Source of the DNA: Verrucomicrobiia bacterium
Lineage (GTDB): Bacteria > Verrucomicrobiota > Verrucomicrobiia > Limisphaerales > UBA1319
Length of the DNA stretch: 64,000 nucleotides
Direction of reading: 5' to 3'
Assembly (NCBI GenBank): GCA_963664225.1
Contig: OY760937.1
Coordinates: forward strand, 4,768,001-4,832,000
Shown: one piece after another, positions 32,685 through 39,394 of the stretch
Layout of the letters: the number at the start of each line of letters is the position of its first letter
How positions within the stretch are numbered: the stretch's first letter is position 1
The notes under the pieces: generated by a model
Databases searched by the model: none
The model's input: the letters and a program-made list of their open reading frames with translations, nothing else
What the model was told of the DNA's origin: nothing
Made by a program: the position numbers and the translations under genes

Positions 32685-34313
32685 ATGAAATTCAGGAAAG
32701 TTGTTTTGCTGGCGGTCGGGATGGGGATGGGGATTATTTCTTCAGTCGGCGCGGCGGCACCAGGAGCGCGGGTGGGGAATTCATTGGTTCAATACCATTT
32801 TTTGGGATTAGACCAGGTTGCCTCAGACACAAACGCCCAGTCGATCCATGCCTTGTCTGGGTCGCCATCCACGCGGCAATTGCGCGAGCAGGTCTTGGAA
32901 AAACTTTCTGCGGCGCCGCAACAACTTTTTGCCGGGCGCATTTCCTCCCAGTCCGCACCAACTGCGCCGTTATTTAGTCCATTATGGGAGGATCTGTTGC
33001 GCAACGAATCTTTTGGAGAATTGCATGGGAGCGCCAAAGAGCCGCTGGAATGGGTGCTGGCCGTGCGTTTGAATGATGATCGGGCCGGCCTGTGGAGTTC
33101 GAATTTGAGCAAGGTGGCGATGCAATGGGGTTTGGGAACGCCTGCTGCAGTAAAAATTGCCGACGCCTCGGGCTGGGTGGCAGGCGGAGCTGGGAAGGGG
33201 AATGAGCGTGCGGCCCAGTTCCTATGTGTGCGCGCCCATTCATGGGTAGTTATAGGCGTGGGAACCCATGAATTGCGGGCGACGAAGGCGTTGTTGGAAC
33301 GATTGGATAAACAGGACAAGATGGCTTTTTCCGAAGAAGGAGCCTGTTTGACGATAAAAAGTGATCTGGCAGGGTTGAGTCATTGGTGGACAGTACCCAT
33401 GCTTCGCCAATTCAATTGCGCGGATCTGCCGTTTCTGGATCTTTCCAGCTCGTTTAAAGCGGGCAATTTATATTCCAGCGGCACGCTGACATTCGCCCAT
33501 GCCCGAAAGGTGGACTTGCAGCCCTGGCAAATCCCGATCGACCTGCTGCGCGATCCGCTGATCAGTTTCACCGCCGTTCAAGGGGTGCATTCCTGGCTTA
33601 AGGATTTGGACTGGATCAAGACGCTGCACATCGATAACCCGCCCAACCAGGCTTTTTCATGGGCGCAAGAGTTCATGCCGTTCATGACCTTTGTTGCAGC
33701 GCCAATGAACAACGCCTCGAACGCCATTCCTGCCATCTCGCGGAACCTGCCGACGCTCATCGATCAATATGCGGGAACCAACCGTTCCGGGACGCTGCGT
33801 TATTTTACCAATCAAAACCAGGTTGTCTGGACCGGGCTTCCTGCGGTTGTCCCATTCGTCACTACGGTCAACGTTTCCGGACAGGATTATTTATTTGGTG
33901 GCTGTGTTCTGCCTTGGGTGACGACGAATCTTCCTCCCACCGAGTTGCTGACACAAGTCACCGGGCGCACGAATCTGGTCTATTATGATTGGGAGGTGAC
34001 GGGGGCGCGACTAAGCCAGGTGCGGGTTTTGGAGCAAATCAGGGACATGGTGTTCAGCACATCGACAACGTTTGACGACGTGCAGCGCACAAACTCCTTT
34101 GGCAATGCCTGGCTGACATCCGCCGCGCCAATATTGGGGAATGTGGTGACTGAGATTTCCATGCAATCAAACAACCAATGGACGTTGAAACGAAAATCCA
34201 GCGCCGGATTCACGGCGTATGAGTTGATCCAGGTCATCAAATGGCTGGACGATCCTCAATTCCCGTTGTTTGGCCATACGCTCGCCGCTCCTGAACGCCG
34301 GGGCGCAAAGTAA
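32685..34313 (+). CDS. Exported hypothetical protein upstream of pdxJ
   Basis: 542 aa ORF with a signal peptide; no recognised family. Confidence 0.75.
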   Translation: MKFRKVVLLAVGMGMGIISSVGAAAPGARVGNSLVQYHFLGLDQVASDTNAQSIHALSGSPSTRQLREQVLEKLSAAPQQLFAGRISSQSAPTAPLFSPLWEDLLRNESFGELHGSAKEPLEWVLAVRLNDDRAGLWSSNLSKVAMQWGLGTPAAVKIADASGWVAGGAGKGNERAAQFLCVRAHSWVVIGVGTHELRATKALLERLDKQDKMAFSEEGACLTIKSDLAGLSHWWTVPMLRQFNCADLPFLDLSSSFKAGNLYSSGTLTFAHARKVDLQPWQIPIDLLRDPLISFTAVQGVHSWLKDLDWIKTLHIDNPPNQAFSWAQEFMPFMTFVAAPMNNASNAIPAISRNLPTLIDQYAGTNRSGTLRYFTNQNQVVWTGLPAVVPFVTTVNVSGQDYLFGGCVLPWVTTNLPPTELLTQVTGRTNLVYYDWEVTGARLSQVRVLEQIRDMVFSTSTTFDDVQRTNSFGNAWLTSAAPILGNVVTEISMQSNNQWTLKRKSSAGFTAYELIQVIKWLDDPQFPLFGHTLAAPERRGAK

Positions 34314-34329
34314 ATTCACCATTTTTACC

Positions 34330-35070
34330 ATGCTCAAACTGGGTGTTAATATCGATCATGTGGCCACCATTCGGCAGGCCCGCTATCATGGACGCGACAC
34401 GGGTGAGCCCAGTCCTCTGGAGGCGGCGCTCCTCTGCGAAGCGGCGGGCGCACACGGGATTACGGCACATCTGCGGGAGGACCGCCGTCATATCCAGGAT
34501 CGTGATATCTGGGAATTGAGAAAAGAGATCAAGACCCGGTTGAACATGGAAATGGCCAATACACCGGGTATTCTCGAAATCGCCCTGCGCCTTAAACCGG
34601 AAATCGTTTGCCTGGTGCCGGAACGCCGCCAGGAGGTGACGACCGAAGGCGGTTTGGATGCCGCCGGTCAATGCACGTCCCTGACGGAAACGAGAAAACG
34701 GCTCAATGACAAAGGGATCGATGTGAGCCTGTTCATCGGGCCGGATGCCCATCAAGTGGAAGCCGCCGCCAGGATTGGGAGCCAATTCATCGAATTGCAC
34801 ACCGGGGCTTTTGCGGAGAGTGCCCATTCGCCGGAATTGTTTCAGAAGGAAATCAAGCGGTTGGTGGATGCCGCACGCCAGGCGCATGGACTGGGGCTTA
34901 AAGTCAACGCGGGACATGGTTTGAATTATCAGAATATGACCGCTTTGTGGGCCGTTCCACACATGGTCGAGTTGAACATCGGCCACAGCATCATCAGTCG
35001 CGCGGTGATGGTTGGTTTGCCCGTCGCCGTGAAGGAAATGCTCGCGCTGATGAGCCAGTATCGCGGCTAA
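34330..35070 (+). CDS. pdxJ: Pyridoxine 5'-phosphate synthase
   Basis: LGVNIDHVATIRQAR, HLREDRRHIQD, TTEGGLD, IELHTG, NAGHGL and ELNIGHSII. Confidence 0.97.
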   Translation: MLKLGVNIDHVATIRQARYHGRDTGEPSPLEAALLCEAAGAHGITAHLREDRRHIQDRDIWELRKEIKTRLNMEMANTPGILEIALRLKPEIVCLVPERRQEVTTEGGLDAAGQCTSLTETRKRLNDKGIDVSLFIGPDAHQVEAAARIGSQFIELHTGAFAESAHSPELFQKEIKRLVDAARQAHGLGLKVNAGHGLNYQNMTALWAVPHMVELNIGHSIISRAVMVGLPVAVKEMLALMSQYRG

Positions 35071-35091: not shown

Positions 35092-35490
35092 ATGATACTT
35101 GGAGTTGGCATCGATTTAGTCGAAACCGCACGCATCAAAGCGTCGATGGACAAATTTGGCGATCGCTTTCTTGCCCGCATTTTGCGGCCGGGCGAGCAGG
35201 AATATTGCCGCAAGTTCCGGGATCCTGAAACGCATGTGGCCGCGCGATTTTCGGCCAAGGAGGCCATCTCAAAGGCCTTTGGAACCGGTATTGGCAAGGA
35301 GTTGGGCTGGTTGGATATGGAGATCGTAAACCAGCCGGGAGGCCGTCCGGTGGCCATTCTTCATGATCGTGGGTTGGAACTGCTGGCGGCACGCGGCGGG
35401 CATGCATTGCATGTGAGCTTGAGCCACACCCGCAGTCATGCCACCGCCATCGCCATCCTGACCGACGAACACCCACCAGGCCAGGTCTGA
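35092..35490 (+). CDS. acpS: Holo-[acyl-carrier-protein] synthase
   Basis: GVGIDLVE, ARFSAKEAISKAFGTG and VSLSH; pdxJ-acpS synteny. Confidence 0.96.
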   Translation: MILGVGIDLVETARIKASMDKFGDRFLARILRPGEQEYCRKFRDPETHVAARFSAKEAISKAFGTGIGKELGWLDMEIVNQPGGRPVAILHDRGLELLAARGGHALHVSLSHTRSHATAIAILTDEHPPGQV

Positions 35491-35586: not shown

Positions 35587-36384
35587 GTGGCTGGCAACCG
35601 ATCCCGAACGAACAGCGATTTTTTAAGCCGTGTGGATGAATATCTTCCCACCGACGCGGCCGTGATCGCCGTTGACGCCTCCGAACAGTCCGAACCGGTG
35701 GCCAGCGTGGATCTTCTAAATGGGAATACTTTCTACCTCTTCAGCTCCGACGCACTACTGGCTGCGAGCCACGCCATAGAGGATTTGGCCCTGGACGAGG
35801 CCAACGGAACCTTGCTAGTCGTGTTGCAGGATTTCGACAATTTCGACACCGATCGGGAACGCTACGCCCTGCTGGCGGCGACCATAGACGGTGTTGCGGT
35901 GGTGGGCTGCGGACGCAAGCCCCGGCATTGTGGACGTGTGCAATTCATAACAGCGGGTCAGAGCGCACTGAAGGATTTTTGGGTCGTGCTTTATCAAGGA
36001 CGCCAGACTCAGGCGCTGGTCATGAGTCGGCAGACGCACCGCACAAACGCTTTTGAAGATCGCACTTTTGTCGGGTTTTATACCTTTGACGCCCGGTTGA
36101 TTGCCAGAGTGCGACAGGACATCGAGGGCTTGTTGCATGGGGAATCGCCGGCTTTGCGCGAGTATGACCGGCTGCGGCAGATCGATCGCACGGTTAAGGA
36201 GGTTCGCGCGGTCTTGCGCCGGGAGCAACTGGCTTTGGATTCGACTCACAACAAAATCCAATTTGGCCGCGTTCAACCCAGGACACTGGCTTCGCGCATC
36301 GACTCCATAGTCAACCAATTGCAAACCATCAAAACCATGCTGCCAGAAGATCCAACTCGCGCGGCATCTCCCAACAAATCATGA
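35587..36384 (+). CDS. DICT sensory-domain-like protein with C-terminal coiled coil
   Basis: LLAASHAIED, VVLQDF...RERYALLA, FWVV and FVGFYTFD resemble the DICT consensus. Confidence 0.6.
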   Translation: MAGNRSRTNSDFLSRVDEYLPTDAAVIAVDASEQSEPVASVDLLNGNTFYLFSSDALLAASHAIEDLALDEANGTLLVVLQDFDNFDTDRERYALLAATIDGVAVVGCGRKPRHCGRVQFITAGQSALKDFWVVLYQGRQTQALVMSRQTHRTNAFEDRTFVGFYTFDARLIARVRQDIEGLLHGESPALREYDRLRQIDRTVKEVRAVLRREQLALDSTHNKIQFGRVQPRTLASRIDSIVNQLQTIKTMLPEDPTRAASPNKS

Positions 36385-37043
36385 TCGAACTTTTCCAATT
36401 CCCATGGAGTCCATACTGCATTGTTCAACGGCGCCTGCTTGAATATTCGGGCGCCCGCTTCAAGATCGTCAACATTCCCCAGGGGGATCGATCAATCATC
36501 TGGAAGCTGACGCGCCAAAGGTATTATGCCGTGCCCATCATTCGCGATGGGCGAACCGTGGTGTTTGAGACAGATGAGGATTCGCAGGTGATCGCCAAAT
36601 ACATCGATGGAAAGTATGAATTGGGGCTTTTTCCCTCCACGCTGGCCGGCGTTCAAAAAATTCTCTGGAGATATTTTGAATCGGAGATCGAATCCGTTGG
36701 CTTCAAGCTCAACGACATTTACTACAGGGAATTTGTGCCGCAAAACGAGCGGCTCTCCTTCATCCGGCACAAGGACCGCAAGTTCGGCCACGGTTGCCTC
36801 GAACTTTGGACCAAGGAACAAGCGGCGTTGCTGCAGGACTTGGAGCAAAGGCTCCAACCCTGTGACCAAATGCTCATCGGCAAGCCATTCCTGCTCGGGG
36901 ATAAGCCGCTATTTGTGGACTTCGACCTCTACGGCATGCTCGGCAATTATTTGCATTCCGGCCATTACGATATGCCTGCGTCGCATACCCGGCTGGCGGA
37001 GTGGCGCCAACGCATGGACAAGCTTGTAAAGGCGAAGGTTTGA
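36381..37043 (+). CDS. Glutathione S-transferase family protein
   Basis: SPYC, cis-Pro VP, DSQVIAKYID and C-terminal FLLGDKP..VDF. Confidence 0.85.
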   Translation: MIELFQFPWSPYCIVQRRLLEYSGARFKIVNIPQGDRSIIWKLTRQRYYAVPIIRDGRTVVFETDEDSQVIAKYIDGKYELGLFPSTLAGVQKILWRYFESEIESVGFKLNDIYYREFVPQNERLSFIRHKDRKFGHGCLELWTKEQAALLQDLEQRLQPCDQMLIGKPFLLGDKPLFVDFDLYGMLGNYLHSGHYDMPASHTRLAEWRQRMDKLVKAKV

Positions 37044-37092: not shown

Positions 37093-37737
37093 GTGAGGTT
37101 TACTCGCGCCGACATGGTTCAATTTTCTGTCATATCGTTTCACGCCTCATCCATCCTTTGGGCCATGGCGGCTGTCCTTGCAGCCTATGCGCTGGGATGC
37201 TTCTCCACGGGTTTTTTCTATTACAAATGGCGGACCGGCAGGGACATTCGGGACTTTGGCAGCGGAAATGCGGGAGCGCGGAATGTGGGGCGCGCCTTGG
37301 GCAAGGCCGGATTCTTTGTCACCTTTCTCGGTGACTTTGGCAAAGGCATGATGGCGACAGGACTGGTGCGAGTGTTTCATCTGGACCCATGGGTTGCGGC
37401 AGGGGTTTTGGTGGCGGTGGTGGCGGGGCATAACTGGCCGGCGCCATTGCAGTTCCGGGGCGGCAAAGGGATGGCGACCGCGGGAGGGGCCATATTGTTA
37501 TTTGATTGGACGCTCACGGCTTGCTCAGCGGCGGCATTTATCGTGATCTGGATAATTTTGCGAAGGACAACGCTCAGCGGTCTGCTGGCTTGCGCCGCGG
37601 CCCCGGTGTTGCTCTGGATATTCAAGCCCGAATTGCCACTGGTCATGGGCGCTTCGATTCTTGCCTTGGAGGTCCTGATCGCGCATCATGCCAATGTGCG
37701 CGAGGAAATTTTGCGGCTGGGTTTGCGCCGCAGCTGA
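37093..37737 (+). CDS. plsY: Glycerol-3-phosphate acyltransferase PlsY family, divergent (start uncertain)
   Basis: DIRDFGSGNAGARNVGR, DFGKG, GHNWP...FRGGKGMAT and degenerate motif 3 AHHANV. Confidence 0.85.
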   Translation: MRFTRADMVQFSVISFHASSILWAMAAVLAAYALGCFSTGFFYYKWRTGRDIRDFGSGNAGARNVGRALGKAGFFVTFLGDFGKGMMATGLVRVFHLDPWVAAGVLVAVVAGHNWPAPLQFRGGKGMATAGGAILLFDWTLTACSAAAFIVIWIILRRTTLSGLLACAAAPVLLWIFKPELPLVMGASILALEVLIAHHANVREEILRLGLRRS

Positions 37738-37759
37738 AGAAAGCGCACTGCATAGGGTT

Positions 37760-39394
37760 ATGGAATCTCAACAACCACTGAAATTTAAGATAGCGAACGA
37801 AGATTGGGAATTCGAGTTGGTGCATCGGCTCAATTACAAGACTTTCGTGGAGGAAATTCCACAACACAAACCGCATCCCAACCAGCGACTTGTTGATAAG
37901 TTCCATTCGGAGAACACTTACATCATCGCGATGGACGGGAATACGCTGGCCGGAATGATCGCTTTCCGTTCGAACCGGCCATTTTCCCTGGACCACAAAA
38001 TTGCGAATCTCGATTCTTACCTGCCGCCGGGCCGCACGGTATGCGAAGTCCGGTTGCTGGCAGTCGAGCGGGCCTATCGCACGGGTTGGGCGTTTCGCGG
38101 GTTAGCGGAGTTTCTGGCCCAATACGGATTGGCGCAGGGCTATGACCTGGCGGTGATTTCGGGAACCACGCGTCAGCTCAAGCTCTATCAGCACCTCGGT
38201 TTTAAACCGTTTGGCCCCACTGTGGGTGAGGTCGGAGCCCAGTTTCAGCCGATGTATCTGACGCTGGAGGCGTTTCTGGAACAAGCCAGCGCCGTGCTTC
38301 AGAACAACGATGGTTCCCAGGTCAGAACCGTCAGTTTCCTGCCGGGTCCGGTGTCCATTGCAATGCCAGTCCAAAATGCTTTGGGGCAGTCGGCCATTTC
38401 CCATCGGTCGGACCACTTTCTACTTAATTTCCAAATCACCCAGCAATTGCTTCGGAAAATGACCGGGGCGCGCGAAGTGGAAATATTGCTGGGTTCCGGT
38501 ACGCTGGCCAACGATGTCGTGGCGGGCCAATGGAAGCTGGAGACCAAACCGGGTTTGATCCTGAGCAACGGCGAGTTTGGCGAACGGCTGATGAACCATG
38601 CACAACGCATGGGGCTGTCCTTTGAAGCGCATCAAAAGGCCTGGGGCGAATCGTATGATTTGAAGGCGGTCCGCAAACAATTGGAAGGGAACCGGAATCT
38701 CGGGTGGTTGTGGGCGGTGCATTGTGAAACGTCCACAGGCATTCTTAACGACATTGCCGGATTGAAAAAGTTGTGCGCCGAGTTCGGCCTGAAATTGGGC
38801 TTGGATTGCATCAGCACATTGGGCGTTCTGCCGGTCAACCTTGAGGGAGTGTATCTGGCCTCGGGTGTCAGCGGCAAGGGGCTGGCTTCATTTCCCGGCC
38901 TGTCGATGGTTTTTCATAATTACAAGGCCGTGCCCGCGCCTGACCGGCTGCCACGTTACCTGGACCTTGGCTATTGCGCCGCGTGCGAAGGAATTCCCTT
39001 CACTCATTCCTCGAATTTGCTCGGGGCTTTGCTGGCGGCCCTGCGCCGGAACAATTCGAGGCGTTATGCGGAATTGGTGGAGACGGCGGACTGGCTGCGC
39101 ACGCAATTGTTGGAAGCGGGATTTCATCTTGTGGCGCCTGCTTCAGAGGCTTCGCCCGCGGTATTCACTATCGCGCTTCCACGCAATATCCATTCGCGGA
39201 TCGCCGCCAAACGGATGCAAAAGGCGGGCTATCTGCTCAGTTACGGCAGTGAGTATTTGCTGCGCCGCAACTGGATTCAGATTTGCCTTATGGGCGAATA
39301 TTCCCGCGATGACCTGATGGGCCTGCTGGCGGCATTGCGGTCCTTGCATCGCAACCACGAGCCGAAATCGGCGAGCCTTGCGGCAACGGCTTGA
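37760..39394 (+). CDS. Fusion of a GNAT-fold N-acyltransferase and a class V PLP aminotransferase
   Basis: N-terminal HRLNYKTFVEE...CEVRLLAVERAYR...LYQHLGF (GNAT/N-acyl synthase). C-terminal FLPGPV, ISHRS, GSGT, NGEFGERL, VHCETSTG, LDCIS and SGKGL (PLP Lys). Confidence 0.85.
   Translation: MESQQPLKFKIANEDWEFELVHRLNYKTFVEEIPQHKPHPNQRLVDKFHSENTYIIAMDGNTLAGMIAFRSNRPFSLDHKIANLDSYLPPGRTVCEVRLLAVERAYRTGWAFRGLAEFLAQYGLAQGYDLAVISGTTRQLKLYQHLGFKPFGPTVGEVGAQFQPMYLTLEAFLEQASAVLQNNDGSQVRTVSFLPGPVSIAMPVQNALGQSAISHRSDHFLLNFQITQQLLRKMTGAREVEILLGSGTLANDVVAGQWKLETKPGLILSNGEFGERLMNHAQRMGLSFEAHQKAWGESYDLKAVRKQLEGNRNLGWLWAVHCETSTGILNDIAGLKKLCAEFGLKLGLDCISTLGVLPVNLEGVYLASGVSGKGLASFPGLSMVFHNYKAVPAPDRLPRYLDLGYCAACEGIPFTHSSNLLGALLAALRRNNSRRYAELVETADWLRTQLLEAGFHLVAPASEASPAVFTIALPRNIHSRIAAKRMQKAGYLLSYGSEYLLRRNWIQICLMGEYSRDDLMGLLAALRSLHRNHEPKSASLAATA

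Follow-up and report, generated by a model that had tools for sequence, protein, structure and literature searches.

Why should a gene for a divergent member of the PlsY acyltransferase family stand directly in front of a gene for an N-acyl synthase joined to an aminotransferase? The question is raised by a locus in the DNA of a Verrucomicrobiia bacterium (contig OY760937.1, positions 4,768,001 to 4,832,000; this whole stretch of 64,000 nucleotides is referred to below as the window). We call the first gene of the pair plsY2. The second encodes a protein with an N-terminal N-acyl synthase (NAS) domain and a C-terminal class V aminotransferase domain dependent on pyridoxal phosphate (PLP), referred to below as the fusion protein. 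We found that plsY2 and the fusion gene make up one module that is conserved, co-translated and sometimes fused into a single gene, a conclusion that is well supported. Very probably, PlsY2 and the fusion protein act in one pathway. The product of the module would be an amide-linked, phosphate-bearing acyl lipid, made in parallel to ordinary phosphatidic acid synthesis. This would point to a so far undescribed way for soil Verrucomicrobia to make membrane lipids with an amide link.

The plsY2-fusion pair across genomes

A preliminary description of this DNA had noted a plsY gene followed 22 bp later by a two-domain gene that combines a GNAT (GCN5-related N-acetyltransferase) domain with a PLP enzyme. 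The coordinates of the open reading frames (ORFs) and the domain matches agreed with it in every detail. The start of the fusion gene at the ATG at position 37760 is backed by homology; the longer ORF that starts at 37688 carries an upstream extension that is absent in relatives by consensus.

A check of synteny, proposed in the same description, showed that the pairing is conserved. We analyzed a phylum sample of 301 genomes, in which a full-length fusion gene was present in 12 genomes from six families. In each of these 12, the gene immediately upstream, in the same orientation, encodes a PlsY nearer to PlsY2 than to the housekeeping copy, and all 12 had a second match to PF02660, the PlsY family. 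Among the 289 genomes without the fusion gene, three had two PF02660 matches, none of them of the PlsY2 type. The second match in G180 was spurious (20.8 bits), and G256 had a single plsY split over two contig ends. G237 had two canonical plsY genes (L146 and L148), each with T41, S142 and the C-terminal tail of housekeeping PlsYs (see below) and neither beside a NAS gene. Within this sample, the PlsY2 type was confined to genomes that carry the fusion gene (12 of 12 with it versus 0 of 289 without).

We also scanned one genome per species. There were at least 576 relatives of the fusion gene, and we examined the best 80 loci. In three of these, the upstream DNA was too short to judge. A PlsY gene was directly upstream in 57 of the 77 evaluable loci, and the other 20 had none within the flank. 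The examined loci were mostly labelled Verrucomicrobiota, with a few labelled Desulfobulbus/Thermodesulfobacteriota, Dadabacteria or Tepidisphaerales; some labels of metagenome-assembled genomes (MAGs) look wrong. Nine contigs with the pair or the fusion gene (L068, L071, L075, L078, L082, L083, L106, L110 and L128) are labelled Bifidobacterium, Bifidobacteriaceae, Saccharimonadales or Baltobacteraceae. They sit within Verrucomicrobiota clades in the trees of both proteins, so these labels are probably binning or naming errors.

The order of the two genes was invariant: plsY2 preceded the fusion gene in all 69 pairs (12 from the phylum sample and 57 from the species scan). Among the 44 loci with clean ORFs, the stop codon of plsY2 and the start codon of the fusion gene overlapped by 4 nt in 30 and by 11-14 nt in four, and were separated by a gap of 2-12 nt in the remaining 10; the spacing in relatives was thus mostly tighter than the 22 nt of the window. 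No other neighbors were shared across families around the 12 fusion loci. One of the fusion genes (G035; L051 / L014; G035:C236:67231-68844) has a single in-frame TGA, which may reflect an error of sequencing, decay to a pseudogene or recoding.

In some bacteria the two genes are one. A single ORF of 738 aa (G038; L049:8589-10805) had Pfam matches to PF02660 (residues 20-190), FeeM (227-366) and Aminotran_5 (417-698). Precomputed Pfam annotation gave the same three domains for five further clusters of proteins (P0121-P0125, 727-739 aa), which come from independent sources. The same was confirmed by Pfam scan for P0150, a protein of 768 aa from a MAG labelled Nibricoccus; in the library clustered at 50% identity it is a representative in its own right. 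Single-chain forms occur in at least two lineages, and a natural gene fusion of PlsY, NAS and aminotransferase is strong evidence that the parts serve one pathway. The protein of G038 has an isoleucine in place of R45, one of the phosphate-clamp residues described below. Other fusions of PlsY were also seen: among P0130-P0145, canonical-looking PlsY domains were fused to DUF4149 (two of these clusters are named from Gemmataceae) or to DprA (P0134, P0136 and P0144), and two PlsY-domain proteins of ~615 aa had a C-terminal half without a domain assignment.

PlsY2 is not an obligatory partner. The view of PlsY2 as the partner of the fusion protein was borne out in that the pairing is strongly conserved, translationally coupled and covalently fused in two lineages; it does not extend to the 20 of 77 loci that lack plsY2. 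We searched five genomes from among these 20 loci. Four had the housekeeping plsY only, and one had none. In a tree of the fusion protein (FastTree, midpoint root; G035 omitted for its in-frame stop), the loci without plsY2 were nested among those with it, as one clade of 11, one of five and four singletons, a pattern suggestive of repeated losses. In the five such loci labelled Thermodesulfobacteriota or Dadabacteria (L121, L126, L127, L137 and L138), a gene for a DCC1-like thiol-disulfide oxidoreductase was upstream of the fusion gene (5 of 5), and all but L127 had one or two genes for Yip1-domain membrane proteins downstream of it.

Relatives of the fusion protein are also found well outside these loci. 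An exhaustive profile-free search gave 437 clusters (50% identity) at E 1e-30 or better. One of them, P0243 (1,246 members at the 90% level), includes proteins that NCBI names from Gemella sp. We compared the fusion protein to one of these, P0297 (Gemella sp., 524 aa). By Pfam, P0297 has the same domains, and across 511 aligned columns the identity was 36% (E 3e-108). The two proteins have in common the motifs NYxTFVEEIPQH, RPFSLD, ISGTTRQ, SHRS, NGEFG and SGK, and also a glutamine in place of a C-terminal arginine (see below). In the ESM Atlas, clusters of the same architecture were commonest in Bacillota and Verrucomicrobiota, an observation that serves as a lead only. The N-acyl serinol synthase published by Cohen et al. 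in 2017 reportedly carries an aminotransferase domain.

In the passages of the reports on which we draw, expression of nas from Gemella haemolysans in Escherichia coli yielded N-oleoyl serinol (PMC13012048), and N-palmitoyl serinol synthases were described from Desulfitobacterium hafniense and Bacillus sp. (PMC9605164). The architecture is alike: in P0297, as in the fusion protein, a PF13444/FeeM domain is followed by a class V aminotransferase in a chain of ~525-545 aa, as is reported for an N-acyl serinol synthase of the human-microbiome NAS (hm-NAS) group. The setting is different. The Gemella-type gene stands alone, whereas in the branch that includes the window the gene is directly preceded by, or fused to, one for a PlsY paralogue of its own. 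None of 63 Gemella-type metagenomic loci had a PlsY-like gene within 4 kb, and the gene sits among housekeeping genes (rpoY and the genes for RNase J and serine dehydratase). That is, PlsY2 needs the fusion protein and the fusion protein does not need PlsY2, as expected if PlsY2 acts on the product of the fusion protein. So the fusion protein would work alone, and PlsY2 would add a step.

In four genomes of the phylum sample (G226, G052, G097 and G220; L150-L153), a gene of ~183 aa for a NAS domain is followed by an overlapping gene of 217-360 aa for an aminotransferase, with 28-37% identity to the fusion protein. None of the four had a second plsY or shared neighbors. The aminotransferase gene of G226 is interrupted by a TAG.

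Active sites of PlsY2 and the fusion protein

PlsY2 of the window is a clear member of PF02660 (137.4 bits, cut-off 24.1, E 6e-40). It scored 120.2 bits against TIGR00023, below the cut-off of 137.2 for the PlsY equivalog. The preliminary description had called it divergent, and rightly so, since the other plsY of the genome does pass that cut-off (C1:5211153-5211707; TIGR00023, 187.8 bits; PF02660, 186.8 bits). This genome is a single contig of 5.78 Mb, 96% complete by marker genes. The second gene, found by a check that had also been proposed, is a canonical housekeeping plsY and overlaps gpsA by 4 nt, the classical arrangement; plsY2 is not beside gpsA. The window copy is thus an extra paralogue. 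Neither of the genomic results named beforehand as counting against the idea, an unconserved pairing or a lone plsY, was obtained, and all of its parts that genomics can address were favored. One copy of plsX is encoded in the genome, so acyl-phosphate is available.

The residues of PlsY2 can be read against those of the PlsY of Aquifex aeolicus (structures 5xj5-5xj9). In the passages of the structural study that we drew on (PMC5700162), the phosphate of glycerol 3-phosphate (G3P) is clamped by S35, R45, K104 and N180, the glycerol 2-hydroxyl is contacted by S142 and H177, and acyl-phosphate is bound by T41 and H92. The same passages report that the T41A mutant had 4.75% of activity left (Table 2 of that study), that arginine occurs at position 41 in 3.0% of 7,288 PlsY homologues, and that S142 is 52.6% conserved among PlsYs generally (also Table 2).

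PlsY2 aligned to 5xj5 with E 3.6e-19. At nine functional positions (Aquifex numbering, with the residue of the window protein in parentheses), it retained seven: S35 (S57), N37 (N59), R45 (R67), H92 (H113), K104 (K125), H177 (H198) and N180 (N201). The G3P phosphate clamp is thus present as S57, R67, K125 and N201. The two changes were R63 for T41 and G163 for S142.

We compared the nine positions in 67 sequences of the PlsY2 type (Y2) and 16 housekeeping sequences (Y1). Y1 sequences were canonical at all nine (16 of 16). Among Y2 sequences, the clamp was largely kept (S35 in 65 of 67, R45 in 63, N180 in 57, and K104 in 59 with arginine in the remaining eight), as were H92 (66 of 67) and H177 (67 of 67). 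In contrast, T41 was replaced by arginine in 52 and by lysine in two, N37 was kept in just nine, and S142 was kept in just three, with glycine in 46 and alanine in 12. Of the acyl-phosphate site (T41, H92 and the oxyanion helper N37), H92 is retained and T41 lost, and the canonical set is not present across Y2. The C-terminal tail NGTENRFGKK is absent from PlsY2 (alignment of 12 versus 12 sequences). In a quick IQ-TREE search with the 67 Y2 and 16 housekeeping sequences, Y1 and Y2 parted on one branch with 100% support in the Shimodaira-Hasegawa-like approximate likelihood ratio test (SH-aLRT), and PlsY2 of the window fell in the Y2 clade. In short, PlsY2 has in common with the Aquifex-type enzyme the fold family, the phosphate clamp, H92 and H177, and differs from it by scoring below the TIGR00023 cut-off, by forming a separate clade and by having mostly lost T41, N37 and S142. 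The clamp kept together with the loss of these three residues fits an acceptor that has a phosphate but is different at C2. The picture, as drawn from the residues, is of a site that may still grip a phosphate ester in the position of G3P and that seems to be rebuilt around C2 and the carbonyl of the acyl donor. The substitutions themselves do show a divergence from the G3P enzyme at the positions of the donor and the C2 substituent.

It could be that PlsY2 is a second G3P acyltransferase with another chain-length preference or regulation, incidentally co-transcribed with an unrelated N-acyl amide synthase. PlsY2 is clearly in PF02660, seven of nine functional residues are retained in the window copy, and two canonical plsY genes in one genome do occur, as in G237. 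Even so, we consider this very unlikely. The PlsY2 type tracks the fusion gene (12 of 12 genomes versus 0 of 289), the two genes share overlapping codons, and the proteins are covalently fused in two lineages. In addition, T41A leaves very little activity in the Aquifex enzyme, as cited above, yet 54 of the 67 Y2 sequences have arginine or lysine at this position.

The remodelled site might also be taken as a sign that PlsY2 plays the part of OlsA or GlsA. In that case a 3-hydroxy fatty acid would be attached to the amine by the NAS domain, and PlsY2 would esterify its 3-hydroxyl to give an acyloxyacyl amide lipid, like ornithine and glycine lipids, with an enzyme that depends on acyl-phosphate instead of a PlsC-type one. 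Pairs or fusions of an N- and an O-acyltransferase (OlsB/OlsA, GlsB/GlsA, OlsF) are the rule for bacterial aminolipids in the passages cited from two reviews (PMC11631085 and PMC12971839), and the loss of T41, N37 and S142 does indicate a remodelled site. However, S35, R45, K104, N180 and H177 are kept, which suits a G3P-shaped acceptor better than a hydroxyl at least seven bonds from a phosphate, and related Firmicute enzymes yield plain N-palmitoyl and N-oleoyl serinol in the reports excerpted above (PMC9605164, PMC13012048). This alternative strikes us as distinctly unlikely.

The preliminary description had proposed a profile comparison of the fusion protein with N-acyl amide synthases; its N-terminal domain was over the cut-off for PF21926 FeeM (40.4 bits, cut-off 27, residues 22-161) and for PF13444 (26.1 bits, cut-off 22.4), and it matched PF13673 with 26.6 bits. 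The hm-NAS proteins are defined as members of PF13444 in the section of the report on which we rely (PMC9762135). The motifs NYxTFVEEIPQH, RPFSLD and ISGTTRQ are invariant in the NAS domain. Compared by sequence to solved structures, this domain had no match below E 0.19. In an AlphaFold2 model (44-sequence alignment; mean predicted local distance difference test, pLDDT, 89.4), the protein has two domains that are well folded, and residues 179-187 between them form a linker of low confidence. A predicted complex of PlsY2 and the fusion protein had a score of 0.00, which counts neither for nor against an interaction.

The aminotransferase domain matched PF00266 (Aminotran_5) barely above the cut-off (22.7 bits, cut-off 21.5) and dominated the Foldseek matches of the full model. 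It superposes on the 2-aminoethylphosphonate (AEP) transaminase 7e7g with a target-normalised template modelling (TM) score of 0.87, and on alanine-glyoxylate aminotransferases (AGTs). Its best sequence matches in the PDB were 1vjo (AGT, E 2.2e-23) and 7e7g (E 1.2e-17). The lysine that forms the Schiff base with PLP (K373, in SGKGL) and the pyridine-binding D349 did not vary among 44 sequences; in the alignment to 1vjo they fall on its SxK and D. The C-terminal arginine of the class V fold binds the carboxylate or phosphonate of the substrate. In the fusion protein this position is Q507 (three of three alignments), and Q507 is invariant in 44 family members. Residues 198-415 of a 555-residue chain deposited as 'Methionine--tRNA ligase' (PDB 9os7) also matched the aminotransferase domain (E 3.3e-15). 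This chain has an extra N-terminal domain of ~190 residues without a sequence match to the NAS domain.

These likenesses raise the possibility that the amine is something other than serinol phosphate, for example glycine from glyoxylate, serine or alanine, AEP, or an aminated sugar or acid phosphate, with PlsY2 O-acylating the N-acyl compound. The nearest solved relatives are AGTs and AEP transaminases, and the top NCBIfam match is PhnW-AepZ (TIGR03301). Specificity could also have drifted, given that 64% of residues are not those of the Gemella protein. Several observations point the other way. The active-site motifs, the glutamine included, are common to the Gemella homologue. The invariant Gln507 takes the place of the arginine by which an alpha-carboxylate is held, and there would be little point in fusing a transaminase to the acyltransferase if the amine were an abundant amino acid. 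Because its phosphate clamp is conserved, PlsY2 should require an acceptor that is phosphorylated and has a hydroxyl free, which neither N-acyl glycine nor N-acyl alanine provides. As for AEP, no phosphoenolpyruvate (PEP) mutase (TIGR02320) was found in the 96%-complete, single-contig genome, so AEP is not made here and a phosphonate version of the pathway is unlikely. We judge another amine to be unlikely overall. The specific reading of the fusion protein as a phosphonate (PhnW) enzyme was rejected because the search of this genome gave no PEP mutase; its scores were also far under the PhnW equivalog cut-offs (128.8 bits against 360.8 for TIGR03301; 85.7 against 400.8 for TIGR02326).

A candidate route from dihydroxyacetone phosphate to an amide-linked lipid

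GpsA reduces dihydroxyacetone phosphate (DHAP) to G3P, the acceptor of the housekeeping PlsY. We propose that the plsY2-fusion module provides an amino counterpart of this route. The class V aminotransferase domain would transaminate DHAP to serinol phosphate, a role that parallels that of GpsA beside the housekeeping plsY. The FeeM-type domain would then move a fatty acyl group, presumably from acyl-acyl carrier protein (acyl-ACP), onto the amine to give N-acyl serinol phosphate. Finally, PlsY2 would clamp the phosphate and esterify the remaining primary hydroxyl with PlsX-derived acyl-phosphate. The end product would be 1-O-acyl-2-N-acyl-serinol 3-phosphate, the amide analogue of phosphatidic acid. 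We put the chance that the pathway runs through these steps in this order at about even.

There is precedent for the first step, as the preliminary description had supposed. Bradyrhizobium elkanii RtxA, through its N-terminal domain (PMC3222319), and Cj1437 from Campylobacter jejuni (PMC11800397) each convert DHAP to serinol phosphate by transamination. These enzymes feed rhizobitoxine synthesis and capsule amidation, not lipids, and neither was among the 30 solved-structure matches of the fusion protein.

It is possible that the order is different and the end product the same. PlsY2 could act first, on serinol phosphate or on DHAP (compare the eukaryotic DHAP acyltransferase), and the NAS domain could then N-acylate the lyso-lipid at C2, much as PlsC does. 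The usual acceptor of PlsY enzymes is a phosphate ester that is small and soluble, and Y2 retains the clamp that holds it; moreover, the position of plsY2 as the first gene in all 69 pairs mirrors the PlsY-then-PlsC logic of phosphatidic acid synthesis. We think that this order is unlikely, because the fusion gene is present without plsY2 in 20 of the 77 loci that could be evaluated and at every one of the 63 Gemella-type loci, and the Gemella gene by itself gave N-acyl serinol in E. coli in the excerpt cited earlier (PMC13012048). That is, the fusion protein and its Gemella relative work without PlsY2, so the NAS domain needs no O-acylated acceptor. The arginines added in Y2 (position 41, 52 of 67) would also be unexpected beside a free ammonium group.

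Several points weigh against the route from DHAP through N-acyl serinol phosphate as we have set it out. Amine, acyl donors and product alike are inferred. The aminotransferase domain is as near to alanine-glyoxylate and AEP transaminases as to any known DHAP transaminase, which gives no clue to specificity, and the acid-binding arginine of the fold is replaced by the invariant Gln507. The Gemella enzyme gave free N-acyl serinol in E. coli, so that a phosphorylated intermediate is an assumption. The link to Gemella is itself indirect, in that the cluster of P0297 is not confirmed as the gene of Cohen et al. 2017. As to PlsY2, the loss of S142 is weak evidence, since its conservation among PlsYs overall is just 52.6%; T41 touches the acyl donor and not the acceptor, so the donor may differ too; and PlsY2 of the window still has N37 and N180. 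Finally, PlsY2 is dispensable, as its absence beside the fusion gene in 20 of 77 evaluable and 63 of 63 Gemella-type loci indicates.

The proposed route resembles known two-step systems in its layout. In OlsB/OlsA, GlsB/GlsA and the fused OlsF, as described in the passages of the reviews cited above, the N-acyltransferase belongs to the same GNAT clan and has as its partner, separate or fused, an O-acyltransferase that adds the second chain, as in the window module, and the products are phosphate-sparing or specialised membrane lipids. Those systems use a PlsC-type O-acyltransferase and a free amino acid as acceptor, with no transaminase. In the window module, in contrast, a PlsY-family protein (PF02660) serves as the O-acyltransferase, and the fused aminotransferase apparently supplies the amine. 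A further parallel is PntC-AEPT (6pd1), whose class V aminotransferase belongs to the same subgroup (structural match, E 7e-24) and is fused to an enzyme of a neighboring step. There the partner is a cytidylyltransferase for phosphonate activation, whereas the window genome is without a detected PEP mutase.

Gene neighborhood and significance

In the window, plsY2 and the fusion gene are the last two genes of a row of six on the plus strand (Table 1). Two genes on the opposite strand, lpxA and radC, converge on this row. Promoter-like and terminator-like sites between positions 34000 and 40500 were at chance level (four promoters versus 3.4 expected; nine terminators versus 8.0 expected). Upstream of plsY2 and the fusion gene, on the same strand, are pdxJ and acpS, whose products supply PLP and holo-ACP. 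These are the cofactors needed by a PLP- and ACP-dependent enzyme. The arrangement of pdxJ, acpS, the DICT-domain gene and the GST-like gene beside the pair was not conserved in other genomes. A 542-aa ORF at 32685-34313 has a hydrophobic N-terminus and no Pfam match.

Table 1. Positions in the window of plsY2, the fusion gene and its domains, and the neighboring genes of the row
Feature	Coordinates	Strand	Remarks
pdxJ	34270-35070	+	first of the six-gene row
acpS	35092-35490	+	second in the row
DICT-domain gene	35587-36384	+	third in the row
GST-like (glutathione S-transferase-like) gene	36381-37043	+	fourth in the row; 4-nt overlap with the DICT-domain gene
plsY2, divergent PlsY-family paralogue	37093..37737	+	214 aa from GTG at 37093; ATG at 37165 is an alternative start
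Spacer of 22 nt, from the plsY2 stop to the start codon of the fusion gene	37738..37759	+	direct reading of the sequence
NAS-aminotransferase fusion gene, 544 aa	37760-39394	+	Pfam matches; sixth in the row
NAS domain, FeeM/PF13444-type GNAT, residues 1-178	37760..38293	+	Pfam, AlphaFold2
Class V (AGXT/PhnW-like) PLP aminotransferase domain, residues 188-544	38321..39394	+	PF00266, Foldseek

The preliminary description had held a PlsY-completed pathway of this kind to be undescribed. We found no description of one in the full-text literature that we searched, which leaves most subscription journals outside it, and within the same scope we found neither a PlsY paralogue tied to an N-acyl synthase nor a report of natural N,O-diacyl serinol lipids. 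The searched passages of two aminolipid reviews (PMC11631085 and PMC12971839) contained no such PlsY-linked system. N-acyl serinol synthases and two-step aminolipid systems are known. What is new here is that a PlsY-family protein acts as second enzyme; the lipid backbone is probably new as well.

Our results suggest, tentatively and at somewhat less than even odds, that many Verrucomicrobiota and some Thermodesulfobacteriota have a second pathway to a membrane-lipid backbone, in which DHAP is transaminated instead of reduced, the resulting serinol phosphate is N-acylated at C2, and a PlsY paralogue devoted to this task adds an O-acyl group at C1. The module is common. It has relatives of the fusion gene in at least 576 species-level genomes, and most of the loci examined are from uncultured Verrucomicrobiota, whose lipids are understudied. 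Named strains with the pair on record include members of Limisphaera (Limisphaera sp. and L. ngatamarikiensis), and a genome labelled Pedosphaera parvula (L070) is also among the carriers.

PlsY is regarded as an enzyme with one job, the committed step of bacterial phospholipid synthesis. If the proposal is right, the PlsY2 clade would contain the first PlsYs to use a different acceptor, and there would be both an undescribed lipid class and an undescribed PlsY activity. This might explain the ~3% of PlsY homologues that have arginine at position 41. The amide-linked analogue of phosphatidic acid would be a hybrid of a glycerophospholipid and a sphingolipid and could take ordinary head groups. 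Its amide bond at C2 would resist cleavage of the phospholipase A2 type and would donate hydrogen bonds, as ceramides do. A family known only for the host-active N-acyl serinols of the human microbiome would then be linked to an environmental, probably structural, role.

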